This document shows positions 2,847 to 60,392 of a DNA stretch of 62,726 nt, piece by piece. A program made the translations under genes and the position numbers. The notes below the pieces were generated by a model. It saw nothing but the letters and a program-made list of their open reading frames with translations. It did no database searches and had not been told where the DNA came from. The DNA is from Thermoproteota archaeon (GTDB taxonomy: Archaea; Korarchaeota; Korarchaeia; Korarchaeales; Korarchaeaceae), in assembly GCA_027491435.1 (NCBI GenBank), contig JAOZFG010000034.1:1-62726 (forward strand), given 5' to 3'. Within the stretch, counting starts at the first letter, position 1. Every line of letters starts with the position of its first letter.

Positions 2847-2981
2847 TCTTTATTTTACAATAATGAAACTTTCATGGGCGGAGAACTTCCGATCTTCGAA
2901 TATTTTATTGCGATAAAAGGAATCTGAATGGCAAACTTTATTTATAACGGGGTTTGACCATTGCCGTAAGGTGATGTGACG

Positions 2982-35371: not shown

Positions 35372-35704
35372 AGACTTATACTCCACAGATATATAAATAG
35401 TTTGGATTGGTAGTCAATAGAATTAGTCAGTAATGTTGGTCAGTCCAACCGAGGTTTAGCTGCTCTATCAAGCGGAGGGCGATCTGTAGGGCTTGCCCTG
35501 ATAGATTCTATGGGATAGCCCTGCAGAAAATTTCTCTCATACCCTTCATAGCTTAGGGTAGATTTCCCAAAGGAGCTTAGGAAAAGTCCTCGAAAGCCCT
35601 CAGGTGGTAAGAAATGCAGGAGAACTGCATAGTTGGGTTCGCTGAGTACTCGTCCAACAGCTGTTCCCCTGTGCCTGTCATTCCCTTAACTTTCACTTCC
35701 TTAT

Positions 35705-36490
35705 TTAGCTCCCCATTATCCTGCGATAATCCCCTTCCACAAGCCCTCCTACCAAGTCTAGGTAGACTTGGGTGGTGTTCAAGTTTGAGTGGCCCAGTAT
35801 GGCCTGTAAGGCCCTTATGTTACCTCCCCTCAGAAGGTAGAGTATGGCGAAGCTGTGCCTGACCTTGTGGGGCGAGGAGTTGAGTGCCTGCTTGACCCAC
35901 CTCCTAATTGTTCTATCAGACCTGGGGAATACCCTTTCACCCCCGCTCACCGCCTTAAGCTCCCTCAAAACGCTGGCAGTATAGTCGGTGAAGTAAACGA
36001 CCCTGTCCTTCTCACCCTTCCCCCTGACCAGGGCTTTCCTGGCCTCCAAGTCGATCCGATCCCAGGTCAGGGAGACGAGCTCGCTGACCCTGACCCCTGT
36101 ATCAGCTAGGAAGAGCAAGGCAGCCTTCCTGATAAGGGGCAAGTCCTTAACAGCTTCCCTCAGGGACTGAACTGACTCTAAGAGCTCCCTGCTAACCCTG
36201 GGCTTTGGAGGAGGAGCCCTCATGCTCTTAGCTAGTCTTCTAACCTCCTGAAGGAGGTCTTGTCTGCCAGCGACTTCAAAGAGGCGGACTAACCTCCGGA
36301 GGTAGGTCCTCAGGGTGATGGGCTTCACCCTCTCCTGCATCAAAGCTACCCAGGCCCTCAAGTCAAGTGGGGTCAGCTGGTCCAGGGGCTTAAAGCTCAG
36401 GAGGGACCTGAACAGGCCCTCGTACTTTTTCCTGGATAGGGGCGAGAGCCCGGCGAGGGCCGCCTTTATCAGCACGTCCTCTTCCATCAA
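35705..36490 (-). CDS. Tyrosine recombinase, XerA-like
   Basis: 'TGVRVSEL', 'GKGEKDR', 'HKVRHSFA', 'LGHSNLNTTQVY': full R-K-H-R-H-Y set. Confidence 0.9.
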   Translation of the reverse strand: MMEEDVLIKAALAGLSPLSRKKYEGLFRSLLSFKPLDQLTPLDLRAWVALMQERVKPITLRTYLRRLVRLFEVAGRQDLLQEVRRLAKSMRAPPPKPRVSRELLESVQSLREAVKDLPLIRKAALLFLADTGVRVSELVSLTWDRIDLEARKALVRGKGEKDRVVYFTDYTASVLRELKAVSGGERVFPRSDRTIRRWVKQALNSSPHKVRHSFAILYLLRGGNIRALQAILGHSNLNTTQVYLDLVGGLVEGDYRRIMGS

Positions 36491-38441: not shown

Positions 38442-39572
38442 TTAGTCCTTGAGCAGCAGGTAGAAGAGGGCGGCCATGGCCAGCAGTAGAGGCACCAGCA
38501 TCACGGCGGTTATGGTGTAGAGCTCGGGCACGTTTGCGAGGCTGTTCACGTTAGTGGTCAGGAGGGCGTTCTTCAACAGGTCAGGCAATTTGTTAACGAC
38601 CTCTGGCTGAGCCACGAAGTACGGGAGTTGGCTGTGCATGTTTAGCATTTCCCCAGAGGCCACGGTCAGCAAGGCCAGGGGGCCTACGGCCTTGACGTAG
38701 TTTAGGTTGAACTCCCCACTGTAGAGGGAGTAGGCTAAGAACAGCTGAGCTAAAACCAAGACCATTTTGAGTATGAACAGCCAAGTAAAATCTAGCTTTG
38801 GTTTCATTCCCACGAGGAATCCGAACACGTTAGCGAACTTGTAGGGAGTTGTGAAGTAGAGGACTATAGAATACCAGGTCCCGAACACCAGCATTAGCAC
38901 TAGAGAAGTTAGTCCATACTTTAAGTTCAGCCTGACCAGCTTCATGTACCTTTCATCCTTGCTCTTGTGATACCTCAACCCATAGGCAGTAACTAGAACC
39001 AAGGAGCCCGCTGCCAAAGCTCCGAATATGCTCTTTAGGTATAGAGGCCACAGGGTTGGGTTCATCAGGGCCTCTCCAACGTCCAGCATCGGTTTAGGCT
39101 CTAGCTTGAGGCCAGCAGGGTAGTTAAGGAAGGCGAAAACTGCCCTGAACCCTAAGGGCACCAGGAGGCCGGTTAGGGCCAGAAGGGCTCCCAGCAGGTC
39201 ATGGAGCTCGTTGGATATCTTGCCCCAAAGGTACCAGTAGGACACTATGGAGAAGAACCTGAGCACTATCATTAGGATTGCCAGCCCGAAAGGAACCCAG
39301 GTCAGGTGTCCTGCAAGCCCTATAAATTGGGGGTAGAAGCTAAGCAGTATGACGGTAAAGGCCGTTCCAAAGACGCCTGCAACGGCGTAAGTAGCTGCGT
39401 AGTATCTCATCAGGTATTTTGCCCTCTCTACCAGGAATTCGTCGCCCTCTTTAGTGCCCTTCCACTTCATCCATGGTATGAAAATGCTCAGGGCTATGTC
39501 CAGGTTGACCAACACTATGTGAACGCCGAAGGTTAGGGTTATCAAGGTGGAAACTGGAAGTGGGGCCACCAT
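38442..39572 (-). CDS. cydA': Cytochrome bd second subunit, CydA-derived (CydA')
   Basis: CydA-like N-terminus 'FGVHIVLVN', 'YAVAGVFGT'; degenerate 'SQLPY' in place of GRQPW. Confidence 0.75.
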   Translation of the reverse strand: MVAPLPVSTLITLTFGVHIVLVNLDIALSIFIPWMKWKGTKEGDEFLVERAKYLMRYYAATYAVAGVFGTAFTVILLSFYPQFIGLAGHLTWVPFGLAILMIVLRFFSIVSYWYLWGKISNELHDLLGALLALTGLLVPLGFRAVFAFLNYPAGLKLEPKPMLDVGEALMNPTLWPLYLKSIFGALAAGSLVLVTAYGLRYHKSKDERYMKLVRLNLKYGLTSLVLMLVFGTWYSIVLYFTTPYKFANVFGFLVGMKPKLDFTWLFILKMVLVLAQLFLAYSLYSGEFNLNYVKAVGPLALLTVASGEMLNMHSQLPYFVAQPEVVNKLPDLLKNALLTTNVNSLANVPELYTITAVMLVPLLLAMAALFYLLLKD

Positions 39573-39578
39573 AGATCA

Positions 39579-41171
39579 TCACCTCTTCCAAAGGAACCAG
39601 TAAACTGCTAGCACTAAAGCCACTAGTATTGCTGTGAGGTACAAAGCCACCCCAACTAATTGCCAAGCAGGAGGAGGATTTATTGTGAGTTCTGTTTGAA
39701 CGTCCATGATCCCGTATATGGCCCATGGTTTCCTACCCATTTCTCTAACACCCCATCCTAAGAAGCTAGTTAGCTGTGCTATTGCTGGAGATATTACCAA
39801 AATCGTAAGAAGCCACTTAGGCACTTCTGTCTTGAAGAAGGCGTAGAAGGTCGCCAGCAAGGCAATTAAACCTAGCAACACACCAAGCCCTATCTTAGTG
39901 TAGTACAGGTAGTGAATTATTAGAGGTGGTCTGAAATTAACGTCTATCTTATCGTATATTGGTAACTTAGCGTTTGGATCGCCGTAAGCCATCATAGGCA
40001 TCAACTGTTTCTCGACAAGGTCTTTTAACCCTATCAGCGATGGTAAAGTCGTTATACTCGAACTGGTCCCCTCCATGGCTGCGAACTTTTCAGGGTTATG
40101 TTTAGCTACAGCCACGCCCATCTCATGTCCGGAGATCATCCCTTGATAAGCTATGGCTAGCAGAGCTACTACAGCAGCGAATTTAAGAGATCTCATGAAG
40201 AACTCCCTGTCAGGGGATTCGGGCATCTTAAGGAGCCTTAGCGAGTAGCCCCCCATTATTGTGAAGGCTGACACAGCTATTGCTGCCCCTATTACGTGGA
40301 AGAATGTGGCTAGATACCCACCTGATAAGAACGTTATCATAAAAGTTCCAGCGTTCATGACGGTAGTTGCAACTATTTGATCTATGACTGTTTTGAGAGG
40401 TAACCCGGATACGGAGGACAAAGCCTCTTTTTTAATAACCAAAGCCAGGGTGCTCTCTCCTACAGTCTTGCCCGCAAAGGCTTCGCTCATTAAGGTTCTA
40501 ACGAGACCTGAGGGTAAGATTACTTTGACGAAGCCATCTCCAGTTCCAAGTACGCTTGCACCTACGGACTTTAAAGCGTTTACATCTATTACCTTAGCTA
40601 ATTCAGTTGGAACGAACAGTAAGACTTCTGGAGGAGCCCATTTGCCCGATATGGGGTCATATCTAGCTAAAACGTTCACAGGAGCTTGCATGAAGGAGTT
40701 GACGCTGAGAATCATTGCTGCTGAGTACCAAGCCCCTGCAAATGCTAGAATACCCACTAGCAGGTGTACTTTAGGCGGAAGTTTGTCCTCAGCGTAGAAG
40801 TACATGTAGATAAAAGCTACTTCCATGAGGAAAGCAAAGACCTCCATGTAAAGGGGGAAGTATATGTACCTGCCGGCAGCCTCGGTTAAGTTAGGCCATA
40901 GCAATACCAAGCCAAACTCTGAAGCGGTCCCAGTAGCGGCTCCTACAGCAAATACCATGACGAAGCCTTTGGCTAGCGTCCTCGATAGTCTCTTCCACTG
41001 CTCATTTCCCGTCTTCATCCAGATGGCCTCAGCTATTACTGCCAAGAAGGGGAGACCTATTACGTACTGTAATATGAACCAGTGAACCTCTATTCCTATC
41101 ATGGAGAGCAACCTTTCCCAGCCTGCCGGGTAACTGGAAAGCCATTGGGAAATTAGACCAAAGGGATCCAT
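39579..41171 (-). CDS. cydA: Cytochrome bd quinol oxidase subunit I
   Basis: 'EVHW', 'FAVGAATGTASEF', 'FFHV', 'PEKFAAMEG', 'REMGRKPW'; start taken at ATG 41171. Confidence 0.9.
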   Translation of the reverse strand: MDPFGLISQWLSSYPAGWERLLSMIGIEVHWFILQYVIGLPFLAVIAEAIWMKTGNEQWKRLSRTLAKGFVMVFAVGAATGTASEFGLVLLWPNLTEAAGRYIYFPLYMEVFAFLMEVAFIYMYFYAEDKLPPKVHLLVGILAFAGAWYSAAMILSVNSFMQAPVNVLARYDPISGKWAPPEVLLFVPTELAKVIDVNALKSVGASVLGTGDGFVKVILPSGLVRTLMSEAFAGKTVGESTLALVIKKEALSSVSGLPLKTVIDQIVATTVMNAGTFMITFLSGGYLATFFHVIGAAIAVSAFTIMGGYSLRLLKMPESPDREFFMRSLKFAAVVALLAIAYQGMISGHEMGVAVAKHNPEKFAAMEGTSSSITTLPSLIGLKDLVEKQLMPMMAYGDPNAKLPIYDKIDVNFRPPLIIHYLYYTKIGLGVLLGLIALLATFYAFFKTEVPKWLLTILVISPAIAQLTSFLGWGVREMGRKPWAIYGIMDVQTELTINPPPAWQLVGVALYLTAILVALVLAVYWFLWKR

Positions 41172-41548
41172 GATCAGACCCCACTGGAGAATGCAACGTT
41201 CTAATATAAGGATTACCTTCAAACCCGATGCTTTCATCATTAGAATATTCATCTTTACACTTTTAATAAAATATTTTTGGGCAAATTTCCGATTAATTTA
41301 GATATATTCCGACTAGAACCGCGCCTATTCGACGTAACCTTAACGGTATTTCGATATAAGGCGACCTAAAAAGATGCGTATGTTAGGGACAAATTAGTTT
41401 GTAATTGAAGAGAATATCTTCGACGTTATAACGACTATTTTGGTCTACATGAACCTTTTATATAGATTATCGTTCACATAGCAGGGGATATTAGTTTATA
41501 TAATTGTTCTAATGTTAATCTTTTTATTTAAGGCCAGTCAGTTAAGTT

Positions 41549-42754: not shown

Positions 42755-43057
42755 ATGAATATGCTAGATCTGTACTTAGAGGTTAAGGAGGTTAGAAAGA
42801 TCCCTCAGGGAATACAGCTCGCGTTGGGAAGGCCCGCGAGCGTTCAGGAAGTGCCAATGCCCGAAAGTGAAGAGGAGGCGATGATGTACCAGATGATCAG
42901 GGCTATGGAGAAGTACGTGAAGATACCGGTGATGGCGGTGACCGTGGAGTCGCCTATTGTAGCCACAATAACCCTCACGGAGGAGGAGTACCATAGCTTA
43001 GGCAAGCCCACCGTTGGGGACGTGCTCAGGATAGCTCTGAGCAGGGGCGAGGGTTAG
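42755..43057 (+). CDS. Arcadin-1-like protein
   Basis: C-terminal 'ITLTEEEYHSLGKPTVGDVLRI' and central 'ESEEEAMMYQMI' helix resemble arcadin-1. Confidence 0.6.
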   Translation: MNMLDLYLEVKEVRKIPQGIQLALGRPASVQEVPMPESEEEAMMYQMIRAMEKYVKIPVMAVTVESPIVATITLTEEEYHSLGKPTVGDVLRIALSRGEG

Positions 43058-44082
43058 TGTCCTCCCCCTTCCTGTTACTGTTGCTTCTGACCCTCACAGG
43101 TGGCTTCGTCAGGTTCGCCGTAGCTGACATCAACGGAGACGGTTCTTTGGAATTCATAGCCTATGATGGCCGATTTCTGAAGGCCTTCTCCCAATCGGGA
43201 GAGGTACTCCACAAGTGGAAGTATAAGGTGAGTAGCGGGATCGCTGTAGCGGACCTCGACGAAGACGGCATGGAGGAGCTAATATTTGGGACTGAGGATG
43301 GGAGGCTCCTGGCCGTAAACTCTGATGGTAAACTTTGGTCGGTGAGGACGGGAACTCCTGTCGTTGCTAAGCCCGCAGTAGGTGATTACGTGGTTGCAGT
43401 GGACTTCAGGGGCGTTCTCTACTTCATTAAGGGCGGTGAGATCGTCAAGAAGATGAGGATGCTTGGCTGTTGCTGTCACGTTCAGAACCCTCCTGCTCTA
43501 GGAGATCTGAACGGAGACGGCGATGATGAAGTTGTAGTGGCCACAGATCCCGGGAGGGTCTTTATCATATCGGAAGGCAGGGTCTCCAGGAACTTCACCC
43601 TGAGAGGGTTCCCCTCCAAGCCCAAAGTTGTGAACGGAACCCTCTACCTGGGGACTAGGGGCCTCATAATGATTGGAAGTAGGAAGGTGGAGCTCGAACC
43701 TGACGAGTACCCCTTGGACTACGGGCCAGAGGGCTGGGTGAGCACTAAGAGGGTGGTATATCGGGGTAAAGAGGTTTTCAGGGGCGAGGTCAAGAGCGGG
43801 GTTATTCACCCGCTGCCCGTCTTCGTCGCCGGCGACGGCCTCTACTTTTACAACGGCTCCTTGGTCAAGGTGGATGAGGGAGACTTCCTACTCTACACCA
43901 GAGGGGACAAGGTGTTTGCCCTCTCCAGGGAGGAGTTTAAGGTTCACGTTTTAACCCCGCCCCAGAGGATCGAAAAGTCACCTGAAAAAGTCGAGACGCC
44001 CCTCGCAAAGGAGGTGGATTACTGGCCCCTCCTGCTTCTTCTACCGCTGGTTGTAATCCTGATCAAGAGACGGCCTTCCTGA
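43057..44082 (+). CDS. FG-GAP/VCBS-like repeat surface protein
   Basis: 'ADINGDGSLE', 'ADLDEDGMEE', 'GDLNGDGDDE'; signal peptide; C-terminal TM followed by KRR. Confidence 0.75.
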   Translation: MSSPFLLLLLLTLTGGFVRFAVADINGDGSLEFIAYDGRFLKAFSQSGEVLHKWKYKVSSGIAVADLDEDGMEELIFGTEDGRLLAVNSDGKLWSVRTGTPVVAKPAVGDYVVAVDFRGVLYFIKGGEIVKKMRMLGCCCHVQNPPALGDLNGDGDDEVVVATDPGRVFIISEGRVSRNFTLRGFPSKPKVVNGTLYLGTRGLIMIGSRKVELEPDEYPLDYGPEGWVSTKRVVYRGKEVFRGEVKSGVIHPLPVFVAGDGLYFYNGSLVKVDEGDFLLYTRGDKVFALSREEFKVHVLTPPQRIEKSPEKVETPLAKEVDYWPLLLLLPLVVILIKRRPS

Positions 44083-45109
44083 CCACCTCTAAACCCTCCC
44101 TTATCACCCTGTACCTGGCAGAGAACCTCCCGCCCTCCTCCTCGTACTCCACCACCTTCTCCAGCCTCGGCACGACCCTGTGGTTGAAGGCGGGGAAAAG
44201 CATGGCGTTCACGTCCTCCTTCCTCACCTCCCCCCTCCCGCTCAGGTAGGCCCAAGCCTTGGAGAGCTTCAAGAGGTGTATCCCTCCTCTAGGGCTAACC
44301 CCTAGCTCGAAGAACTCCCCGACCTGTGGCAGGAACTCCGGCCTGGTCAGCCTGGTGAGCAGGGTGACGTGCTCCAGCACCTCCTCGCTCACCTTCACCC
44401 TGACCACTTCGTCCTGAGCTCTTATCACGTCCTCTGGGTCGGCCACCTTCATAACTTCTTGAAGGGGCTCCTCAATCCTGCCCTCATGCAGCTTGAGGAT
44501 TTCCCTCTCCTCCTCCACGCTCTCAGGGTAGCCCATCACCACCCTGGTCACGAACCTGTCAAGCTGGGCCTCCGGGAGTGGATAAGTGCCCTCCTGCTCC
44601 ACCGGGTTCTGTGTGGCCGCGACGAAGAAGAACTTCCCCCTGGACCGATCCTCCAGAAAGTAGGTCTTGTTCCCTATTGTGACGCTCCTCTCCTGCATCG
44701 CCTCCAGCAGGGCCGACTGGGTCCTGGGAGTGGCCCTGTTTATCTCGTCGGCCAGCACGAAGTAAGCGAATATGGGCCCGAGCCTAGGCTCGAAGTCCCT
44801 GGTCCTGGGGTTAAAGACCAGGCTTCCCGTTACGTCTGAGGGCATTAGATCAGGGGTGAACTGGATCCTTGAAAAGCCAGAGAACTCGACTCCGTTTACA
44901 GTAACCTTTTCCCCCAGCAGCCCAAGGGACTTGGAGAGGGCCCTCACCAAGGTTGTCTTCGCTATTCCCGGAACTCCCTCCAGGAGGACGTGTCCCCTGG
45001 CCAGCAGGGAAGCCACTACTATCTTCTTCTCCAGCCTATATCCTATGACCGACCTGTCCAAGGCCTCCAGGACCTTCTTTATCCTAGTTAGTGATGATGA
45101 AGTCCCCAA
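44063..45109 (-). CDS. moxR: MoxR-family AAA+ ATPase
   Basis: 'GVPGIAKT', 'RIQFTPDLMPSD', 'LADEINRA', 'ATQNPVEQEGTYPLPEAQLDRF'. Confidence 0.93.
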   Translation of the reverse strand: MGTSSSLTRIKKVLEALDRSVIGYRLEKKIVVASLLARGHVLLEGVPGIAKTTLVRALSKSLGLLGEKVTVNGVEFSGFSRIQFTPDLMPSDVTGSLVFNPRTRDFEPRLGPIFAYFVLADEINRATPRTQSALLEAMQERSVTIGNKTYFLEDRSRGKFFFVAATQNPVEQEGTYPLPEAQLDRFVTRVVMGYPESVEEEREILKLHEGRIEEPLQEVMKVADPEDVIRAQDEVVRVKVSEEVLEHVTLLTRLTRPEFLPQVGEFFELGVSPRGGIHLLKLSKAWAYLSGRGEVRKEDVNAMLFPAFNHRVVPRLEKVVEYEEEGGRFSARYRVIREGLEVVRKAVS

Positions 45110-45953
45110 CCTTCTTCACCTCCGACCAAGGGACGTCTTCGTAGAGGTCCTCCCCCTCAACTTTGACCACTTTATCAGAGAGCTCGTCCAGGACCTCCTG
45201 AGGGGCCTCCATCTTCTTCAGGACTTCCTTCACCTCCTCATATCTCTCCGCCGAAAGCTTGGGCTCCTTGTAAGGGTCAGCCAGTCTGGTAAGCTCCTCC
45301 ACCAACTCCCTGTAGCCCTTCCTCCTGAGCCAGGTGATGAAGGGGAGCCACCTTATCACCTTAGAGGACCCTTTCCTGGAGTAGACCCTGACGCCCGGGT
45401 GTCCAAAGCCTATTACTAGTTCACCGGCAATGCCCAGGATGCCCCTTTCCCTGCTCAGAACCACCTTCTGTCTGACCATATCGGGAAGGGGGTTCTCAGG
45501 CCTCATCAGCGGTTCCATCCCCCTGTACCACACCTCCCTCGGGGTGTCCAGAAGTATCACCCTGAGCTCCCTCCTCACGCCCTCATACTCCACTGTGAGG
45601 TCGTCCACCCACTTGACCTCCGAGACCGGAACCTTGGCCTTGAGCACTTTTACTTCGGCGCTATACACCTTCTTGGGGAGCTCTATCCCGTGATCTCTGG
45701 CCACGCTCACCATGCCCTCCAAGGGGGCGTCGGGAGGGAGGGTTATGCCCTTGCTCTCAAGCCTTATCCTCAGTTCCTCAACGTCTACGGTGCTCTCTCC
45801 CACTCTTACAGGCATTTCCACCAGGAGGAAGGGCCCTTCCTCCGTGAACTCGGCCCCTCCACATAAGCCGTAGTGTAAGCCATCCGAGTCGACCACCTCG
45901 TAGCCAACCAGCTCCTCTGGCGTGAAGAACCTCTCTTTTAGCTCGGACCTCAT
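45084..45953 (-). CDS. Hypothetical protein with two probable PRC-barrel domains
   Basis: 'ELVGYEVVDSDGLHYG...VPVSEVKWVDD..VILL' and 'KVVLSRERGILG...VPWSEVKKVGDFII'. Confidence 0.55.
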   Translation of the reverse strand: MRSELKERFFTPEELVGYEVVDSDGLHYGLCGGAEFTEEGPFLLVEMPVRVGESTVDVEELRIRLESKGITLPPDAPLEGMVSVARDHGIELPKKVYSAEVKVLKAKVPVSEVKWVDDLTVEYEGVRRELRVILLDTPREVWYRGMEPLMRPENPLPDMVRQKVVLSRERGILGIAGELVIGFGHPGVRVYSRKGSSKVIRWLPFITWLRRKGYRELVEELTRLADPYKEPKLSAERYEEVKEVLKKMEAPQEVLDELSDKVVKVEGEDLYEDVPWSEVKKVGDFIITN

Positions 45954-45961
45954 ACAATTTT

Positions 45962-46789
45962 ATGGGTAGACCTCCCTATTATAGTATGTCATTTTGTAAG
46001 AGGGTGAGGTCAGAGCTCAGGGCCGGGCTCAGCCGGTCGGCGAACATGGCAGTTGGCGAGTCCCCTGTTGACGTCGTGGGAATTGGGCTTGAGTACCTAG
46101 ACCTGAGGGAGTACAGATATGGGGATGACGTGAGGAGAGTTGACTGGCGTGCTTCAGCCAGGAGCGTTGACGAGAGGTTGTTCGTTAAGGTTTACAGGGT
46201 TGAGAGGAGGGTTCAGGTTAACCTGGTGGTGGACCTCACCTCCTCAATGGGGTTCAAGGAGAAGCCCCTTATCCTGGCCAGAGCGTTGGGCTTAGTCTTG
46301 GGCTTGGCCTCCAGGCTGAAGGACGTTGTAAGGCCTGTGGTGCTGGCTGACAGGGTGAGGGTGTACCCACCCATGGAGGGGGAGAAGGCCTCATACCTGT
46401 TGCTCAGGGAGGCCTGCTCGGGGTTTAAGGGTGGCTTAACCCTGGGCGCGTTGAAGTTTAGGGGGAGGAGCGTCGTATTCACCGACCCAGCCCAGCCTTT
46501 GGAGGAGGTGAGAAGAGCCAGGGGGATGGGCGCCTCCCTCTTCCTGGTGGCGTCTAAGGGAGAGTTGGGCCTGCCCGTCAGCGGAGCCGGGGCGGTAGGG
46601 GACCTGGAGCTCGGGTTAAATGAGTTCTACGATTTAAACGAGTTCAGCACGGCAGTCAGGGTGCACCTGAACTCCATGAAGGCTTTGCTAGGGGACAGGG
46701 GAGCTTTGCTTACAGAGGACACTGTAAGAAGGCCCCTAAGCGTCGCCCTGCCCTACGTGAGGTGGACTAGGGGAGGTGTCCCCCATTAG
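45962..46789 (+). CDS. DUF58 domain protein (MoxR-associated)
   Basis: 'LREYRYGDDVRRVDWRASAR', 'VDLTSSMGF'. Confidence 0.88.
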   Translation: MGRPPYYSMSFCKRVRSELRAGLSRSANMAVGESPVDVVGIGLEYLDLREYRYGDDVRRVDWRASARSVDERLFVKVYRVERRVQVNLVVDLTSSMGFKEKPLILARALGLVLGLASRLKDVVRPVVLADRVRVYPPMEGEKASYLLLREACSGFKGGLTLGALKFRGRSVVFTDPAQPLEEVRRARGMGASLFLVASKGELGLPVSGAGAVGDLELGLNEFYDLNEFSTAVRVHLNSMKALLGDRGALLTEDTVRRPLSVALPYVRWTRGGVPH

Positions 46790-47642
46790 GCGGGATGGCA
46801 AGAACGTCCTGATATTCGCCGGCTTGCTAGCCCTCCTGCTGGCCATTTTCGCCATCACGCTTATCCCCGAAGCTGAGGCAAAGTACGACCTTAGGGAGCT
46901 TCCAGAGGACTTCATCCGGGCAGTTCACGGCCTGAACCTGAGCGTGAACTCCCTTCACATGAAACTGGACACTAGGGCCCTTGCCGAGGAGATGGGCTCC
47001 CTGGCCAAGAGGTTGATGAAGGTCCACGAGGAGGGGCTCTTCAAGGGCAAGTTGGGGAAGTTATTGAACGAGGCCTCCCTCTCCTACTCCAAGGTGGCTG
47101 AGGCTGCCAGGTACGTTAGTGAGCTCTCCTCCGAGCTCAGGGAGAAAAGGGACGAGTTGAGCCTTATGTTCAGTTACCTGGAGAACTGCAGCGTTGAGGA
47201 GGCCAGGGACTTAGTCGAGAAGCTGGAGCTAGAGAGCACCCTGGAGAAAGCCTCTTCTGCCTTGAACGCCCTGAATCAAGTTAATGAGACCTCTTTACTA
47301 TCAGAGGAACACAGACGCGTTTACAACGAGTCAGTTCATAAGGTGAAGAAAATTTACGATATGTTGGTGGAGCTGATCAAGGTCAGGGATCTCCTGAGTG
47401 AGGAGGACCCCAAGGTGTTGAGGGAGCTCTGCCTGGCCAGAAAGCTGGGCAGGAGGCCTGATCCCTCCCTATCATACGGGAGTGCCTTATCTAGGCTACG
47501 ACAGTTGGACCCAAGCTCTGGGTACGACTACGCTTTCCAGATATACCAGGTCAAGTCTTGGCTTAAGGGAGCTCGGTGCAGGGGTTCAAGTGGCAGAGCT
47601 GGCTCAGGCGCTGGCACCTGGTACCCGGAGAGTGACGATTGA
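46776..47642 (+). CDS. Membrane-anchored helical hypothetical protein
   Basis: N-terminal TM, coiled-coil-like body, Gly-rich tail; overlaps both neighbours. Confidence 0.6.
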   Translation: MSPIRRDGKNVLIFAGLLALLLAIFAITLIPEAEAKYDLRELPEDFIRAVHGLNLSVNSLHMKLDTRALAEEMGSLAKRLMKVHEEGLFKGKLGKLLNEASLSYSKVAEAARYVSELSSELREKRDELSLMFSYLENCSVEEARDLVEKLELESTLEKASSALNALNQVNETSLLSEEHRRVYNESVHKVKKIYDMLVELIKVRDLLSEEDPKVLRELCLARKLGRRPDPSLSYGSALSRLRQLDPSSGYDYAFQIYQVKSWLKGARCRGSSGRAGSGAGTWYPESDD

Positions 47643-48505
47643 TGTTCCAGAGGCCTGAGCTATTGATCCTCTTAGCCTTGATGGTGCCCCTCCTGTTACT
47701 TCACAGGAGAGCGGCCCTCAGGTTCAAGTTCGCATTGAAATACTTCGACTATTCCGGGGACCATCGACTCCGACTGACCGTTAGTTCAGCTAGGCTACTG
47801 GCCCTCCTCCTCATCGTGATCTCAGCAGCTACGCCAGCGTTTAAACAAACTGTTAAGGAGGAAGTCCCTCTGGAGATGGCAGAACTCCTCTCCGGGAGGC
47901 AAGTCCTCCTGGTCATAATGGTAGACGTCTCCAAGAGCATGATTGGAAGGTTGGATAGGGTGAAAGCCGTTCTGAGCGAGATGAACTACCCCAACACCAC
48001 AGTTCACCTGGCCACCTTCTCAGGTAAGGTCAGGCCAGTGTACAGTGGGACGGCGGAAGGGCTAGCGTCTGTACTCCCAAGCCTGAAAGCTGGGGAGAGG
48101 TACACGGCCATAGGGGACGCCCTGGTTTACGCCAGGTCCTATGCCCTTGGCTACCCGCTGCCCTCGGCGGTGATCCTGTTCTCAGACGGCAGGCAGAACT
48201 ACGGGAGCGATCCCCTCAAGGTGGCCAGGGGTTACGGAGTGCCTTTAATAGTGGTGGCCGTTGACGAGGTCAACGTGTTAGGCCAAGTAGCGGCACTGGC
48301 CGAGGGTAAGATTTACAGCTTAGAGGACTTCCCAGCGGATTACAAGCAGTTCGCCAAGGAGCTCATGTTGAGGTCTAGGTACTTAGCGTTGAAGGCTAAG
48401 GGAGAGGCATACGTGGAGAGGGAGGTTCTGGACTACTTCCCCACCCTCCTGGCGCTAGCCCTCTCCCTGGTGACCTTCATAATATCCCAGGGTGACGGGC
48501 TTTGA
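47639..48505 (+). CDS. vWA-domain membrane protein (BatA/B-like)
   Basis: 'FQRPELLILL' BatA-like N-terminus; MIDAS 'DVSKSM', 'TAIGDAL', 'FSDG'. Confidence 0.82.
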   Translation: MMFQRPELLILLALMVPLLLLHRRAALRFKFALKYFDYSGDHRLRLTVSSARLLALLLIVISAATPAFKQTVKEEVPLEMAELLSGRQVLLVIMVDVSKSMIGRLDRVKAVLSEMNYPNTTVHLATFSGKVRPVYSGTAEGLASVLPSLKAGERYTAIGDALVYARSYALGYPLPSAVILFSDGRQNYGSDPLKVARGYGVPLIVVAVDEVNVLGQVAALAEGKIYSLEDFPADYKQFAKELMLRSRYLALKAKGEAYVEREVLDYFPTLLALALSLVTFIISQGDGL

Positions 48506-49467
48506 TCGAGTTCGAGAACCCCTACGTGCTCTTGCTCATCATCCCAGCTTGGGCCCTACTTCTCTGGGGGCACAAGAGTTTTCTATACTCGAAGATTTAC
48601 TCCTTAAGGAACCCCATGGCTAGAGTGGTCAGGCCTAGAAAGCTGAAGAGGCGAAGGCTTGGGACCCTGGCCCTAAAGCTGGCCGTGTCCGCCCTACTAG
48701 TGATCAGCCTCTCCGGACCTTATTTAATCAGGACTAAGGTTGTGGAGAAGGAGCTTACCAGCGAGCTAGAACAGGTGTTGAAGGCTGGAAGGCCTGCTGT
48801 CGTAATCTGCCTTGACGTCTCGGGGAGCATGGCCGACCCCTTCCCCGGAGGTGTAAAAATACAGGTGGCTAAAGAGGTGATTAACAGGTTTCTGGACCTA
48901 ATACCTGAGGGGGTGGACGTGGGGCTAATAGCCTTCTCCCATTCGGTGGTGGAAGAGGTGGCCCCTACTGAAGATAGGTCCCTGGTCAGGGAGGCGTTGG
49001 CAAAGCTCAAGGCTGAAGGAGGGACCATGTACACCTACCCGCTCACCTCAGCTCTTAACTACCTAATGGCCTACAGGGTGTTGAACCTCTCCACGATGGT
49101 GATCTTCGTGACCGATGGAATGCCAGGGGATCAGTACAGGCCACTCCTCCAGAAGTTCGTTAAGTGGGGAGTTCCCATATACACGGTCTACATAGGCTCC
49201 GGTCAGGGCGCCTCGGAAACCGAGTTCATGGCCTCTAAAACTGGAGGGAGGATGTTCACAGCTGAAAGCGCTGATGAGCTCAGGGCCATCTTTCAAGATC
49301 TGGTCAAGGAGGCTAAGAAGCTTAAGGTTAAGTCTCAGGTCAGGCTTAAGTTCCGAAAAGAGGTTAAGGTGAGGGAACCCCTATCCTGGATGTTCTCCTC
49401 CCTAGCGGCCCTTCTCTTCCTTGCCCTTTCGTTTAAGAGGTACCAGATTTCTAAGCTTACTCCTTAG
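48502..49467 (+). CDS. vWA-domain membrane protein (BatA/B-like)
   Basis: 'FENPYVLLL'; MIDAS 'DVSGSM', 'GGT', 'VTDG'. Confidence 0.85.
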   Translation: MIEFENPYVLLLIIPAWALLLWGHKSFLYSKIYSLRNPMARVVRPRKLKRRRLGTLALKLAVSALLVISLSGPYLIRTKVVEKELTSELEQVLKAGRPAVVICLDVSGSMADPFPGGVKIQVAKEVINRFLDLIPEGVDVGLIAFSHSVVEEVAPTEDRSLVREALAKLKAEGGTMYTYPLTSALNYLMAYRVLNLSTMVIFVTDGMPGDQYRPLLQKFVKWGVPIYTVYIGSGQGASETEFMASKTGGRMFTAESADELRAIFQDLVKEAKKLKVKSQVRLKFRKEVKVREPLSWMFSSLAALLFLALSFKRYQISKLTP

Positions 49468-55759: not shown

Positions 55760-55972
55760 ATGTCATTGGGAAGCCCTTTCATTTAACCCTTTGCTGACCC
55801 TCCAGTACTAGTTCAGGGACGGGCCGCAATAAAGTTGCTGTGTGATTATAAGCGCTTTGAGAGGGGCCTCCAGGCCCTCCACTAACAACCTTATCCAAGA
55901 GGGTCAAGATCTGCAAACGTGACAGCGCCGGGAAATTAATTAGTTTTCAGTGTCTTACGGCTGGGTGATAGC

Positions 55973-57163
55973 AGGGCCAAGCTTCTGGAGTATCAGTCCA
56001 AGGAGATCCTCCGTGATTATGGGATTCGAGTTCCTAGGGGCGTAGTCTTGGATTCCCCTAGGGAGGTGGATATGGGGCCTGTTTACATTAAGGCACAGCT
56101 TCCATTCACGGGCAGGAAGTCCGTGGGAGCTGTAATTAGGGCGGAGCCCCACCAGGTTAAGGAAGTGGTGGAAAGGCTCCTCTCCTCAGAGTTTAGGGGC
56201 TTCAGGCCTAAGAAAGTGTTGGTGGAGGAGGCCGTCCCAGTAATAGCTGAACTGATGGTTGGTGTGACCGTAAACTACTCCAGGAAGGTGAAAGGGCCCG
56301 TAGTAGTTGCCTCGCCATCAGGTGGAACTGGTGTAGAGGAGAGGGAAGCTTTAAGTGTGCCTGTAAACTACTTGGAGGGCCCACCCGACCTCACCGATAA
56401 GCTCAGGGAGATGGGCTTTCCCAGGGCCGAGGAAGTGAACAGGATAATAGAGAAGGTTTACCAGATTTTCGTGGACTACGACGCTAGAAGCGTTGAAATC
56501 AACCCTTTAGCCTTAACTCCGGACGGGTTCGTGGCCCTAGACGCCAGAATAGACCTGGACGATCACGCCCTCTTCAGGCATCAGGTTAGGGTAGAGGTGC
56601 CCAAGGACTTAAACAGAGATCCCACAGAGCTTGAGCTAGCCATGTGGTACTGGGACGAGGTGGATCCAAGGGGAACGGGCTACTTCATACTCCTACCCGT
56701 GGAAGGCGAGCCCTACGTTGGGTTTCATGGGATAGGTGGAGGAGGGGCCATGCTGGCCGCGGACGCTTTGATTAGGAAGGGGGTAAGGATAGCGAACTAC
56801 GCAGACACTAGTGGGGACCCACCAGCGTCCAAGGTTTACAGGGTGATAAGGACCATCCTCAGCATCCCGGGGATCAGCGGCTACATAATGATGGGCAGCG
56901 TAATGGCTAGCCAGGAGCAGTGGCACCACGCCCACGCCCTGGTCAAGGCCTTCAGGGAGATGCTCTCAGACAGGAAGGGCTTTCCTGCCCTGATCCTGCT
57001 GGCAGGTAACAAGGAGAGGGAGAGCCACGAAATAATAAGGAGGGGGCTTAGGGGCCTTCCAATAAGGTACGAGCTTTACGGCAGGGACTACATCTACGAG
57101 ACCGATTACATAGCTGAGAGGATGAAAGTCATGGTGGAGGAGTATAGGGAGGGGATGTCATGA
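55973..57163 (+). CDS. ADP-forming acyl-CoA synthetase beta subunit (SucC/citryl-CoA synthetase/MtkA-like); canonical start codon missing
   Basis: In-frame 'KLLEYQSKEIL..YGI.VP.G' begins at 55979, upstream of the listed ORF; 'IKAQ', 'EINPL', 'GGGGAM', 'ANYADTSGDP'. Confidence 0.8.
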   Translation, partial: RAKLLEYQSKEILRDYGIRVPRGVVLDSPREVDMGPVYIKAQLPFTGRKSVGAVIRAEPHQVKEVVERLLSSEFRGFRPKKVLVEEAVPVIAELMVGVTVNYSRKVKGPVVVASPSGGTGVEEREALSVPVNYLEGPPDLTDKLREMGFPRAEEVNRIIEKVYQIFVDYDARSVEINPLALTPDGFVALDARIDLDDHALFRHQVRVEVPKDLNRDPTELELAMWYWDEVDPRGTGYFILLPVEGEPYVGFHGIGGGGAMLAADALIRKGVRIANYADTSGDPPASKVYRVIRTILSIPGISGYIMMGSVMASQEQWHHAHALVKAFREMLSDRKGFPALILLAGNKERESHEIIRRGLRGLPIRYELYGRDYIYETDYIAERMKVMVEEYREGMS

Positions 57164-57423
57164 TCTCATTTAGGACCAGGACCGCCACCGTTAGGATAAA
57201 CTTGGACGAGTGTGTCGCTCCCGATTGCGGCTTCGCCTGCGTAAAGGCGTGCAGGCTGTACGGTAGAGGAGTTCTAAAGATAGAGAAAGGAAAGCCGGCG
57301 ATGGCCGTTACAGAGGAAGAAGCCGAGAGGATAGATAACGAGTGCCTAGCCTGTGAGATCCACTGCTACTGGTATGGAAGCGGGGCAGTTTCAGTCATAG
57401 TACCTATGGAGGTGCCCCCATGA
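57160..57423 (+). CDS. Atypical ferredoxin-like Fe-S protein
   Basis: C-x4-C-x3-C-x3-C and C-x2-C-x3-C; overlaps both neighbours. Confidence 0.7.
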   Translation: MISFRTRTATVRINLDECVAPDCGFACVKACRLYGRGVLKIEKGKPAMAVTEEEAERIDNECLACEIHCYWYGSGAVSVIVPMEVPP

Positions 57424-58298
57424 TAGGTGCAGACACCAGGGTATTAGTTCAGGGGATAACTGGCCGTACGGGCGAGTTCGCCACAAGGTACATGCTCGAG
57501 TATGGAACTAGAGTTGTTGGCGGCGTCACCCCGGGCCGGGGAGGGAGGAAGGTTTGGGGCGTACCAGTCTTCGACACGGTCTCTGAGGCAGTGGAGAAGG
57601 TGGGGCCCATTGACGCCTCGGTTGCTTTAGTCCCTCCCTCTCACATAAAGGAGGCCGTGCTTGAGGCCATAGATTCTGGGATAAAGTTAATACTGGTTCC
57701 CACGGAGAGGGTTCCCCTCCACGACGCCATGTACTTCCTGGCCTACGCGGAAAGGAAGGGTACCAGGGTGATAGGCCCCGGTTCCTTCGGAATTATAAGG
57801 CCGGGGGAGGCTGTGATGGGGTGGGTAGGCGGCTCCCTGGAGCTATCCAGGGAGGCGTTCAGGCCCGGGATCGTGGGGGTCATATCCAGGAGCGGAGGCC
57901 AGACGACCACCATATCCTGGGCTCTAAGCCAGGCTGGTCTGGGGGTCTCCTTAGCTGTACACGTGGGCTCAGAGCCCCTGGTCGGCACTACAGAGTACGA
58001 CGTCCTGGAGTTCATGGGCAAGGACGATAGAACCAAAGCGGTGGTCATATTCGCTGAGATAGGAGGGGTTCAAGAGGAGGAGGCCGCCGAGCTCATTAAG
58101 GAGTATGAGAAGCCTGTAGTAGCTTATGTGGCTGGAAGCATGCTCCCCAAGGGGATGAGATTCTCCCACGCTAGCGCCATCGTTGAAGGGGATAAGGGAT
58201 CGGCTGAAAGCAAGATAAGGGCCTTTAAGGAGTCGGGAGCTTTGGTTGCGTCCTCCCCTAAGGAAATCGTCGAGCTGGTTAGGAGGTCGGTAAAATGA
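57420..58298 (+). CDS. ADP-forming acyl-CoA synthetase alpha subunit (SucD-like)
   Basis: 'VLVQGITG', 'GGVTPGRGG', 'ISRSGG', 'EIGG', phospho-His 'FSHASAI'. Confidence 0.88.
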   Translation: MIGADTRVLVQGITGRTGEFATRYMLEYGTRVVGGVTPGRGGRKVWGVPVFDTVSEAVEKVGPIDASVALVPPSHIKEAVLEAIDSGIKLILVPTERVPLHDAMYFLAYAERKGTRVIGPGSFGIIRPGEAVMGWVGGSLELSREAFRPGIVGVISRSGGQTTTISWALSQAGLGVSLAVHVGSEPLVGTTEYDVLEFMGKDDRTKAVVIFAEIGGVQEEEAAELIKEYEKPVVAYVAGSMLPKGMRFSHASAIVEGDKGSAESKIRAFKESGALVASSPKEIVELVRRSVK

Positions 58299-59155
58299 TG
58301 AGGTCACTACTTTTCGTCCCGGCCAACAGCTGGAGGCTTCTCCTAAGCTCGGTCAAGTCTGAAGCGGACGCTGTCGTTCTAGACCTGGAGGACTCGGTCC
58401 CCATAGGGGAGAAGGAAACTGCCAGGTGGTTCGTCAAGGAGTTCCTTAGGGAGGTTAGAGACAGCTATAGGGGTAAGGTGTTCGTCAGGGTGAACGGGAT
58501 CGAGACTGGCCTCACAGAGGAGGATTTAAAGTACGTGGTCAACAGGGGCTTAGATGGGCTCGTCCTCCCTAAGGCGACCGCTGAGGGCGTGGTCAAGCTA
58601 ACTTCAATGGTCAAGCCTTTAGAATCTAGCGAGCTGAGGTTGCCCGTGATCCCCCTACTAGAGACCGCTAGAGGGGTCCTGGAAGCCAAGGAGGTCGTGT
58701 CACTGCCTAGGGTTCGAGCCTTGGCCTTTGGTATGGGCGATTACCTGAGGGAGCTAGGCTTGGACGTGAACGTGTCGGACCAGGAGTGGGAGGTGCTCTT
58801 CGCCAGGTCAATGGTGAGTACCTCGGCGGCCATGGGAAACGTCCCAGCCATAGACACGCCGTTCCTGGGGCTTATAATAGATAGGGAGGGTGTGAGGAGG
58901 CAGGCCCTGATAGCTAGGAGGCTGGGCTTCAGCGGGAAGTTCGCCATCCACCCATCGCACGTTCCGGTGATAAACGAGGTATTTACCCCCTCTGAGACCG
59001 AGGTCAGGGAGGCTGAGGAGATAGTTAGAGCCTACGAGGAAGCGGTAAGAAGGGGGCTAGGTGCCACCTCTCTGAGGGGGATGATGATAGACAGAATGAA
59101 TTACGAGAGGGCTAAGAGGTTGTTGAGGGAGGTAAGCGAACTTGACGGCGGTTGA
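58295..59155 (+). CDS. CitE/malyl-CoA/citramalyl-CoA lyase family CoA-ester lyase
   Basis: 'RSLLFVPA', 'DLEDSV', 'VRVN', 'LETARG', 'FGMGDY', 'GKFAIHP'. Confidence 0.88.
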   Translation: MMRSLLFVPANSWRLLLSSVKSEADAVVLDLEDSVPIGEKETARWFVKEFLREVRDSYRGKVFVRVNGIETGLTEEDLKYVVNRGLDGLVLPKATAEGVVKLTSMVKPLESSELRLPVIPLLETARGVLEAKEVVSLPRVRALAFGMGDYLRELGLDVNVSDQEWEVLFARSMVSTSAAMGNVPAIDTPFLGLIIDREGVRRQALIARRLGFSGKFAIHPSHVPVINEVFTPSETEVREAEEIVRAYEEAVRRGLGATSLRGMMIDRMNYERAKRLLREVSELDGG

Positions 59156-60392
59156 GGAGTTAGTTCAAAGCGTCTGGAACATGGAACCCAGTGAAGCCTC
59201 CCTGAAGGAGGCGTTAAAGGCCCTTGTTGATACGGTAAACGTGGCCATCCTGGGCTATAAGAGGTCGAAGGAAGCCAGGTCCTTTGCCGACTCCTTCGAC
59301 TGTACGGGCGAGGCGCTGGTCCTGGGCAGGTGGTCCAAGGCCTGCCCCACGGTGGCGGCCATGGTCAACGCCTTCTTAGCCCACTCCCTGGAGTACGATG
59401 ATTGGTTGAGGGCTGGTTACGTGCACGCCGGAAGCGTGGTTGTGCCCGTAGCCCTAGCGCTGGCTGAAAGCTGGGACGACCTGCTCAGGTCCCTGGTGGT
59501 GGGATATGAGGTCGCAGCTAGAGTGGGGGCGACCTTGGGGAGAAGTCACTATTCCAAGTGGCACACCACCAGCACAGCAGGCTCCTTCGGAGCTACGGCA
59601 ACGGCCTCAATGCTCATGGGCCTCAACGAAGAGGAGACGTCCCACGCACTTTCCATAGCTGGCTACTACGCCTCGGGCCTCTGGGGCTTCATATCATCGG
59701 GCTCCTCAGTTAAGCCCTTCAGCCCAGCCCATGCGGTCTTCGTAGGGATGAACGCAGCTAAGCTAGCCTCTCTAGGCGTTAGGACCAACCTCAGGGTCTT
59801 CGAGGATGAGAGGGGTGTTTGCGCTAATATGTCCGGGGAGTGCAACTTGGAGAAGTTGACGGAGCCGGGCTGGGATTATGCGATCCTTTTAAACGGGTAC
59901 AAGCTGTTCCCTACCTGTAGGCACACCCACACGGCAATAGCTGCTGCCCTATCCCTTAAAGGTGAATTCTCCGAGGTTCAGGTCCTCACCTTCAAGGAGG
60001 CGTTGAGGATAGCCAACATAAGATCTCCCAGGACTGTGGAAGAGGCTAGGTTTAGCACCTCCTTCCTCGTCTCCCTCGCCTTAACTTACGGCAAGGTGGA
60101 CCTGGACTCAATAAAGAGGGGGCTTAAAGACCTTAAGGTGATGAGGCTGGAGGACAGGGTGGTGGTAATGGAGGAGACAGCCCACACGGCAAGCTATCCC
60201 GAGGAGCAGCCGACCACCGTTAGGGTTCTAACGGAAAAGGGATGGCTGGAGAGCACCGTCATAATCCCACCTGGCGATCCAATGAACCCGGTGATCTTAG
60301 AGGATCTGCTAAAGAAGGTGGAAAATGAGTTCACCAGAAAGCTGGTGGAACAGGCCGAGGAAGGAGGAGCCCTTAGGCTTTCACCTCCCTGA
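59142..60392 (+). CDS. MmgE/PrpD family protein
   Basis: 'AHSLEYDD', 'HAGSVVVP', 'GYEV', 'WHTTST', 'KLFPTCRHTH'. Confidence 0.88.
   Translation: MTAVEELVQSVWNMEPSEASLKEALKALVDTVNVAILGYKRSKEARSFADSFDCTGEALVLGRWSKACPTVAAMVNAFLAHSLEYDDWLRAGYVHAGSVVVPVALALAESWDDLLRSLVVGYEVAARVGATLGRSHYSKWHTTSTAGSFGATATASMLMGLNEEETSHALSIAGYYASGLWGFISSGSSVKPFSPAHAVFVGMNAAKLASLGVRTNLRVFEDERGVCANMSGECNLEKLTEPGWDYAILLNGYKLFPTCRHTHTAIAAALSLKGEFSEVQVLTFKEALRIANIRSPRTVEEARFSTSFLVSLALTYGKVDLDSIKRGLKDLKVMRLEDRVVVMEETAHTASYPEEQPTTVRVLTEKGWLESTVIIPPGDPMNPVILEDLLKKVENEFTRKLVEQAEEGGALRLSPP

Follow-up and report, generated by a model that had tools for sequence, protein, structure and literature searches.

In citryl-CoA synthetase (CCS; CcsAB of Hydrogenobacter thermophilus, PDB 6HXQ) with its lyase CCL (Ccl), and in ATP-citrate lyase (ACL; AclAB), an ADP-forming ligase joins a hydroxy acid to CoA and a lyase frees acetyl-CoA from the ester. 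The serine-cycle pair MtkAB and Mcl places a ligase related to the two-subunit succinyl-CoA synthetase (SCS) SucCD beside a lyase of the CitE superfamily. Here we describe an operon that recalls each of these systems, at positions 55973-60392 of a 62,726-nucleotide window (the whole stretch of DNA analysed, contig JAOZFG010000034.1) from a Thermoproteota archaeon of the Korarchaeaceae. It encodes an acid-CoA ligase whose two subunit genes flank the gene for a small putative Fe-S protein, then a CitE-type lyase, then a member of the MmgE/PrpD family. We give slightly better than an even chance to its being a thiokinase-lyase operon for a 2-hydroxy-dicarboxylate, with malate or citramalate most likely and citrate less likely.

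The five genes lie on the + strand (55973/56048-60392), with successive overlaps of 4, 4, 4 and 14 nt in the list of open reading frames (ORFs), and form one translationally coupled operon. Five overlapping or abutting genes had been claimed by a sequence-only reading of the window, and the overlaps confirm this, with Pfam domains in agreement. The first gene (55973..57163; canonical ORF 56048-57163) encodes the beta subunit of an ADP-forming ligase, with an ATP-grasp and an ACL/CCS-like C-terminal acid-binding domain. An 87-aa protein with seven Cys follows (57160..57423), hereafter FeS, which we read from its fold, position, fusion and complex model as a ferredoxin-fold third subunit. The alpha subunit (57420..58298) has CoA-binding and phospho-histidine domains by Pfam, with His250 in 'FSHASA', and the CitE/HpcH-family acyl-CoA C-C lyase (58295..59155) is assigned by Pfam HpcH_HpaI. 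The last gene (59142..60392; Pfam MmgE_PrpD_N and MmgE_PrpD_C) encodes an MmgE/PrpD-family protein of an IDS-epimerase/IRG1-like branch.

The likeness to CCS and ACL extends to an 'ANY..SG.P' type motif and a Citrate_bind match, and the CCS large subunit is the solved chain nearest to beta. Unlike those systems, the module has a CitE/HpcH lyase in place of the citrate-synthase-like CCL (or ACL C-terminal module), its acid loop reads A-S-Q-E-Q-W-H-H where ACL has A-N-F-T, and the similarity is low (beta E 1e-32). We know of no ferredoxin-fold third subunit in CCS or ACL. With SucCD the module shares superfamily, domain order, and the ATP-grasp, CoA-binding and phospho-His motifs, but it adds a third subunit, a 'GW.GG..E' insertion in alpha and a distinct beta C-domain. 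MtkAB differs in that beta reaches 87.9 bits on the NCBIfam malate-CoA ligase (MtkA) model against a cut-off of 604, that the module has the extra Fe-S subunit, and that the window's lyase lies in another clade. The Ict/Ich/Ccl (RipABC) system with IRG1/CAD resembles the operon in its RipC-related lyase and IRG1-like PrpD-family protein; the window's unit is without CoA transferase or hydratase, would activate its acid with ATP, and scores far under the equivalog cut-offs. The malyl-CoA pathway of glycolate- and glyoxylate-fermenting anaerobes also has its counterpart, in a sister-clade module with genes for glycolate-oxidase-like proteins, malate dehydrogenase (MDH) and oxaloacetate decarboxylase (OAD), going by the accessible portion of PMC8092247.

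To our knowledge, ligases of the SCS/ATP-citrate-lyase superfamily are thought to need no metal cluster. Among open-access PMC papers and bioRxiv, the scope of our search (subscription journals lay outside it), we found no account of an Fe-S subunit in this superfamily, nor of the gene set. One preprint, in the portion accessible, mentions 'CCS homologues' in Deltaproteobacteria and other groups, without detail on an Fe-S subunit or a gene set. The module is widespread among anaerobes and apparently unstudied.

Conservation of the module

A motif scan of one genome per species across 185,579 species gave 375 stretches, 365 of which encode relatives, and the best 80 loci were analysed. Module genes were counted by tblastn because crude ORF picking chose antisense shadow ORFs in some GC-rich loci (clusters c18, c23, c24). 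FeS follows beta in 76/76 loci with room, alpha is present in 71/71, and the lyase in 64/67 (the loci without it after alpha are L079, L081 and L118). The same beta-FeS-alpha-lyase order is kept in 12/12 loci of relatives fetched separately. The lyase is a fixed partner of the ligase. Carriers include Thermoproteota, Archaeoglobi, Bathyarchaeia, Dehalococcoidia, Desulfobacterota and others, the named groups being anaerobes, and a word-indexed search around one beta member returned 4,681 protein clusters at E<=1e-60. Databases label these relatives 'succinyl-CoA synthetase beta subunit', 'acetate--CoA ligase family protein' or 'ATP-grasp domain-containing protein'.

PrpD-family genes are a less constant element. 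At a score of at least 90 bits they occur in 36/80 loci, upstream of beta in some and downstream of the lyase in others; certain Desulfobacterota loci carry two or three. The five-gene order claimed for the operon is therefore conserved in its first four members, with PrpD a frequent neighbour and not a universal one. In a tree of the family the window's copy sits on a long branch within the half that holds most of the 'downstream' copies, where deep nodes are weak.

Within the genus, FeS is found in 9/20 other genomes and a PrpD-family protein over the cut-off in 9/20. Eight genomes have both, one has FeS only (G007, whose contig ends inside the lyase), and one has PrpD only (G008, 78% complete). 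Neither FeS nor PrpD was matched in 15 genomes of four other genera of the family. The five genes behave as one accessory unit within the genus, where kin are not independent observations.

Several loci depart from the common arrangement. In L079 and L081 (Desulfohalobiaceae metagenome-assembled genomes, MAGs), beta-FeS-alpha is followed by AFOR, a 3-hydroxyisobutyrate-dehydrogenase-like gene, AA_synth (PF06684) and a CoA transferase of family III; the Fe-S ligase is here put to a variant use. The module of a Dehalococcoides MAG (L053, 6998-12506) has immediately after it another beta/alpha pair, SCS-like and lacking an Fe-S gene, and a Desulfobacteraceae MAG (L093, 1889-10455) has such a pair and a PrpD gene upstream on the opposite strand.

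The ligase and its small, putative Fe-S protein

Beta matches ATP-grasp_2 (PF08442) and, at 28.6 bits against a cut-off of 26.8, Citrate_bind (PF16114); alpha matches CoA_binding (PF02629) and Succ_CoA_lig/Ligase_CoA (PF13607/PF00549). The marks of the superfamily are all present: ATP-grasp, CoA-binding domain and the catalytic His in alpha. Beta falls short of the NCBIfam SucC cut-off (132.5 vs 370 bits), as alpha does of those of SucD models (289.3 vs 336 and 305 vs 353.2 bits), whereas a true SucCD pair on contig C28 of the same genome passes (406.2 vs 370 and 417.6 vs 353.2 bits). The window's ligase is 33% (beta) and 48% (alpha) identical to that pair, and on these sequence comparisons it is a paralogue and not the cell's ordinary SCS. 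The source genome, 1.64 Mb in 43 contigs, also encodes four further ACD-type alpha homologues. The genome's own sucC and sucD (L008, contig C28, 1426-3501) are divergent, with sucC on the minus and sucD on the plus strand 60 nt apart, the usual arrangement being a sucCD operon. In a quick maximum-likelihood tree, 72 module betas stand apart from three SCS-like betas with an SH-aLRT of 100, these three being the whole outgroup, with CCS, ACL and Mtk references not included.

The solved chain closest to beta is the CCS large subunit 6hxq_B (E 1.3e-32), followed by Thermus SCS and Chlorobium ACL, and the C-domain alone scores 41 bits with CCS, 35 with Chlorobium ACL and 25 with Thermus SCS. Beta had been described as no ordinary SucC and as nearer to ACL/CCS, and this description is borne out by its sub-cut-off SucC score, by 6hxq_B as top solved chain, and by the motifs GIGGGGAM and ANYADTSGDP, which are present and near-invariant within the family. 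The A-N-F-T loop of Chlorobium ACL, which we take to be its citrate-binding loop, aligns with A-S-Q-E in beta, with an invariant W-H-H next to it; A[SN]QE[QM]WHH is a family-specific motif. Because A-N-F-T is replaced by A-S-Q-E...W-H-H, the acid site of beta appears to be of ACL/CCS type in its scaffold and not in its residues. In alpha, His250 aligns with the His of 'GHAGA' in SCS paralogues, the catalytic His and the CoA-binding motifs (glycines) are invariant across 22 alphas, and the 'GW.GG..E' insertion is specific to the family.

The Cys of FeS, at positions 18, 23, 27, 31, 62, 65 and 69, have an unusual spacing (C-x4-C-x3-C-x3-C ... C-x2-C-x3-C). Across 28 homologues six of them never vary and position 31 holds Cys or Asp; an eighth Cys is present in more distant members. 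No Pfam family matched at E<=0.01; Fer4_2 appeared only at E 0.48, and no Fer4 model came over threshold. Foldseek placed no PDB entry at E<=0.001 beside the AlphaFold model (pLDDT 90.1), its matches, to ferredoxins and the Fe-S domain of ABCE1, being weak (best E 0.065). The best VIA-align hits have Z 6.9 over 76 aligned positions (rmsd 2.8) and Z 6.7 over 63 (rmsd 2.6), values below 8 being middling, and nearly all 50 rows listed are ferredoxin-type Fe-S domains. Matches in the ESM Atlas are to unnamed or 'putative 4Fe-4S ferredoxin-type' clusters (score 0.92). A word-indexed homologue search with FeS gave 46 clusters, a count that understates its spread because tblastn on the loci finds it in 76/76.

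That FeS belongs to the ligase is independently supported by gene fusion: in 8/76 loci beta and FeS form a single reading frame, and translating two of these, L075 from a Sulfolobales MAG and L078 from a Nezhaarchaeota MAG, verified them. The Fe-S protein noticed between the ligase subunits is therefore a conserved feature. A multimer model with the ferredoxin had also been proposed as a check, and in our three-chain complex model the ipSAE is 0.87 in 3/3 runs (partner pLDDT 92), the best of three controls giving 0.00. The mark for this score is reached by 116/157 solved complexes and 2/215 mismatched pairs, a calibration that is only rough for this model. All confident predicted contacts of FeS fall on beta (222-233, 284-294, 317-325 and 354-358) and are 100% reproducible; they include W317-H318...H321 on beta and residues 60-67 of FeS, around Cys62 and Cys65. 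The model supports binding of FeS to beta, without demonstrating it, and we read FeS as a third subunit that would dock on the beta C-terminal domain. The predicted position of FeS beside the family-specific acid loop is, to us, the most interesting lead of the analysis.

The 5' end of the beta gene is irregular. The start chosen by the sequence-only reading, 55973, is an AGG codon at the place where homologues carry Met (MARLYEYQGK...). The conserved N-terminus (AKLLEYQSK...) is encoded from 55976, and the homologous frame is open from 55940, after a stop at 55937-55939. No ATG, GTG or TTG occurs in the beta frame between that stop and the TTG at 56048; the in-frame sequence upstream reads ...LRLGDSRAKLLEYQSKEIL..., and a GTG at 55965 sits in a different frame that closes at 56043-56045. 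The database copy of beta (P0047, 371 aa) begins at TTG 56048, a start that would cost 25 residues, among them the invariant E6, K10, L13 and P21. Three causes could each account for this: a frameshift, a non-canonical start or an error of assembly. Likeliest are a non-canonical start and an indel of one base, whether real or introduced in assembly; a single additional base between the GTG at 55965 and about 55976, where the conserved coding begins, would put that GTG in the beta frame. An AT-rich box at ~55933-55943 could be a promoter.

Substrate, direction and rival readings

Clues to the substrate come from neighbouring genes in other lineages. The 80 loci yielded 948 ORFs, which we grouped into clusters; representatives were scanned for 25 clusters found in at least four loci, plus 17 smaller ones. 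PrpD-family proteins lead (41 loci by ORF cluster), followed by TfrA/SdhA-like flavoproteins (22), LivK-type binding proteins (14), GntR/UTRA regulators (13) and cyclic amidohydrolases of allantoinase/hydantoinase-like type (11). Class-I fumarase-like genes accompany the module as alpha in seven loci and beta in six, TfrB-like Fe-S/CCG proteins and AFOR in seven each, and family-III CoA transferase, TRAP permease and Na+-decarboxylase beta in four each. The operon order FumA-FumB-TfrA-TfrB-beta-FeS-alpha-lyase, found in L046, L061 and L092, suggests a sequence from saturated to unsaturated to hydroxy acid that feeds the ligase. Five of the seven FumA loci are without PrpD in the analysed stretch, and fumarase- and Tfr-like neighbours occur in members of the window's own lyase clade. 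Module operons of eight loci also hold DUF1847, a Cys-rich protein whose function is not known (for example L047, L049, L061, L064, L092, L100 and L113); in Archaeoglobi it is accompanied by a small cupin and an unnamed 288-aa protein.

The lyase scores 132.6 bits on HpcH_HpaI (PF03328; cut-off 25) and falls below the equivalog cut-offs for CitE (TIGR01588, 167 vs 443.4 bits) and RipC_Ccl (153.9 vs 375). Its solved relatives 1sgj, Mcl, RipC, Mcl and CLYBL score 136, 120, 115, 113 and 104 bits, too close to discriminate, and we rejected them as a guide to substrate. In the lyase tree the window's protein belongs to the large clade (50 rows), in which the module is found with PrpD, Tfr and fumarase; a small clade of seven rows includes L067, L074, L084 and L117 on a long branch. 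Two Thermoproteota loci of the small clade have a divergent CitMHS-family transporter beside the module. In L067 and L074 the module lies with GlcD-like (517 vs 568 bits), GlcE-like and CCG Fe-S proteins, an MDH above its cut-off (453 vs 352), OAD alpha/beta and a GlcC/LldR-like regulator. This set matches the enzymes of the malyl-CoA pathway, which the accessible part of PMC8092247 describes physiologically and enzymatically in glycolate- and glyoxylate-fermenting anaerobes, with ATP synthesis. A beta labelled Desulfofustis sp. is 78% identical to that of L067, and the genus was described on glycolate, to judge from a title cited in PMC8092247. Because the window's lyase lies outside this glycolate-oxidase clade, the malate assignment is not simply transferable to the window, for which it is a lead and not a result. 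No glyoxylate- or malate-related gene is linked to the module in the window or in the loci of its genus.

The window's MmgE/PrpD gene is the only family member in the genome. Its product scores 165.5 and 80.8 bits on MmgE_PrpD_N and _C (cut-off 32.1) and fails the PrpD equivalogs (35.4 vs 950 and 21.1 vs 575 bits), and its nearest solved chains are IDS epimerase (8e-33) and Bacillus subtilis IRG1 (E 5.7e-31). The His/Lys positions that can be traced by eye in alignments of the family are kept. We rejected these catalytic residues as an indicator of substrate, as they are common to the whole MmgE/PrpD family.

We propose that beta, FeS and alpha would form a three-subunit ADP-forming acid-CoA ligase of the SCS/ATP-citrate-lyase superfamily that works through phospho-His250 of alpha, and that the CitE-type lyase would cleave the acyl-CoA to give acetyl-CoA plus, as the 2-oxo acid, glyoxylate or pyruvate. 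In reverse, the lyase would condense the two products and the ligase would conserve the thioester as ATP, a direction as plausible as cleavage in energy-limited anaerobes. The PrpD-family enzyme may turn the hydroxy acid into an unsaturated or isomeric one, or the reverse, through (de)hydration or isomerisation, adjacent to the ligase step, and its job appears to be that of the class-I fumarase-like genes in several other lineages. Gene order makes this role plausible, as it does the substrate and direction. Malate is our tentative first choice of substrate and citramalate a close but still doubtful second; citrate is clearly less probable, and the rest of our expectation falls on some other acid. 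FeS would sit against that face of the beta C-domain which is specific to the family, beside the acid-binding loop of relatives, where its role may be structural, redox-sensing, electron-carrying or catalytic. It is conceivable, as a long shot, that the unit is a redox-linked thiokinase in which clusters against the W-H-H loop join the acid chemistry or wire the ligase to Tfr-like flavoproteins, and that it is the missing gene set of the malyl-CoA pathway. One option would be aconitase-like Lewis-acid (de)hydration at an open-iron cluster, and in this connection the genus has only seven Cys; either way, one complex would combine activation by ATP with a redox or hydration step.

A number of points weigh against the thiokinase-lyase proposal for a 2-hydroxy-dicarboxylate. 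Members of the module are known here from genes and models alone, the complex score of 0.87 is a model's confidence obtained from alignments that we made ourselves, and the window's copy of beta may be damaged or mis-assembled, because it has no canonical start at the homologous N-terminus. Beta scores lower on the malate-CoA ligase model than on SucC (87.9 vs 132.5 bits), and its best solved relatives, CCS and ACL, together with the Pfam citrate-binding domain, favour a tricarboxylate. The lyases of the glycolate-oxidase clade are only 33-34% identical to that of the window. PrpD has no match in 44/80 loci, many of them on short contigs, and the PrpD-family protein, whose similarity to IDS epimerase and IRG1-like proteins exceeds that to PrpD, is for this reason not an established dehydratase.

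The rival that fares best, though we consider it unlikely, keeps the same enzymes and has them work in the synthetic direction: acetyl-CoA and glyoxylate or pyruvate would yield malate or citramalate with formation of ATP, the unit substituting for malate or citramalate synthase and the PrpD-family protein processing the product. ADP-forming ligases of the SCS superfamily are reversible, and the four ACD-type alpha homologues are typical of ATP-conserving archaeal fermenters. The GlcD/E, MDH and OAD context of the sister clade points the same way, as does the Desulfofustis-labelled relative of L067. So do the anaerobes reported, in the accessible part of PMC8092247, to break down glyoxylate or glycolate via malyl-CoA while making ATP. 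However, neither the window nor the genus has a glyoxylate-forming gene linked to the module, the lyase of the sister clade is distant, and direction cannot be read from sequence.

Rather improbable, in our estimate, is a two-step ATP-citrate lyase, in which the ligase would be a citryl-CoA synthetase, the CitE protein a citryl-CoA lyase, and the PrpD-type protein a hydratase turning aconitate into citrate, for citrate/tricarboxylate catabolism or a reductive TCA (rTCA) cycle. The ranking of solved relatives of beta (6hxq_B first; CCS > ACL > SCS for the C-domain) and a Citrate_bind match just over its cut-off argue for it, as do the CitMHS transporter in two loci and Na+-decarboxylase beta in four. 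PrpD-family enzymes act on tricarboxylates, and CitE is the citryl-thioester lyase family, as the consulted part of PMC3832036 has it. Yet the A-N-F-T loop of ACL appears not to be kept, the corresponding A-S-Q-E belonging to the family's own motif, and the lyase reaches 167 of the 443 bits of the CitE equivalog. Recurrent neighbours are fumarase-, fumarate-reductase- and glycolate-oxidase-like and not aconitase or isocitrate dehydrogenase. The genome, moreover, already has citrate synthase and aconitase: a classical citrate synthase on another contig, its only citrate-synthase-family gene, and an aconitase fragment at a contig end. One SdhA/TfrA-like gene and a class-I fumarase are present in it as well.

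An itaconate route is very improbable. Here the PrpD-family protein would be an IRG1-like cis-aconitate decarboxylase, the ligase would form itaconyl-CoA, and the lyase would be a RipC/Ccl-like citramalyl-CoA lyase. It draws on the match to B. subtilis IRG1 and to cis-aconitate decarboxylases (E ~1e-16), on the kept His/Lys positions and on the 153.9 bits of the lyase on RipC_Ccl. That score is far from the cut-off of 375, the kept residues do not identify a decarboxylase because the whole MmgE/PrpD family has them, and the itaconyl-CoA hydratase that the route needs finds no MaoC or enoyl-CoA hydratase family among the 25 + 17 neighbour clusters scanned. That the ligase is an ordinary SCS among unrelated neighbours, with a small ORF arising by chance, as its automatic database names (succinyl-CoA synthetase, acetate--CoA ligase family) might suggest, is scarcely credible, since it lies below all SucC/SucD cut-offs while the genome's true pair passes, and since the small ORF with its invariant Cys is found in 76/76 loci and fused in eight, with the lyase next in 64/67. 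The sequence-only reading had named this very outcome, an ordinary SCS without conserved neighbours, as the one that would overturn it, and the results contradict it.

Surroundings and significance of the module

A sugar epimerase gene and a gene for a polysaccharide-synthesis membrane protein lie 5' of the unit, and a convergent gene for a 621-aa secreted-looking protein lies 3'; none of the three is conserved beside the module in the other loci examined. Profile scans identify an operon at 2976-6995 with an HMGL-type synthase, LeuC/HacA, LeuD/HacB and an isopropylmalate/homoisocitrate-type dehydrogenase; after it comes a gene for a cupin-type glucose-6-phosphate isomerase (6949-7665). Its LeuC/HacA-family large subunit passes (557 vs 410 bits), and the synthase is below every NCBIfam cut-off (best, homocitrate synthase, 187 vs 463 bits). 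By these scores the operon is a 2-oxoacid elongation set rather than a demonstrated citrate-forming operon. The suggestion that the five-gene unit complements 'the citrate-forming operon at 3-7 kb' is not supported: the two lie 50 kb apart, and the elongation set neighbours the module in 0/92 related loci examined.

Elsewhere in the window, a single ORF of 2787 aa occupies 17481-25844 on the + strand. A tyrosine-recombinase (phage integrase family) gene adjoins AAA_14 (34667-35386) and DUF4143 (34164-34670) at 34164-36490; these two domains often occur in one protein, and the region may be a split ATPase and the border of a mobile element. A pair of neighbouring genes at 38442-41252 encodes cytochrome bd subunit-I-like proteins of 557 and 376 aa, in a genome that is otherwise anaerobic-looking, with AFOR at 14993-16858 and several ACD-type ligases elsewhere. 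At 44063-49467 a MoxR AAA+ ATPase, DUF58 and two VWA-domain genes make up a MoxR-VWA cluster, which adjoins an arcadin-1-like gene (42755-43057) and an FG-GAP beta-propeller gene.

For the ligase superfamily, the module means a distinct branch with an apparently obligatory subunit of probable ferredoxin fold and a fixed partner, the CitE-type lyase. In databases its ligases go under the names succinyl-CoA synthetase and acetate-CoA ligase, so that they may be misread in metabolic reconstructions, for example as steps of the TCA or rTCA cycle. Knowing the substrate would give its place to an as yet unassigned step of carbon metabolism in anaerobes, one that forms acetyl-CoA or conserves ATP. 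The module may also supply genes for the malyl-CoA pathway, which so far rests on physiological and enzymatic evidence as far as the accessible part of PMC8092247 goes. If the ligase does prove to be a redox-linked thiokinase, it would represent an undescribed enzyme class.

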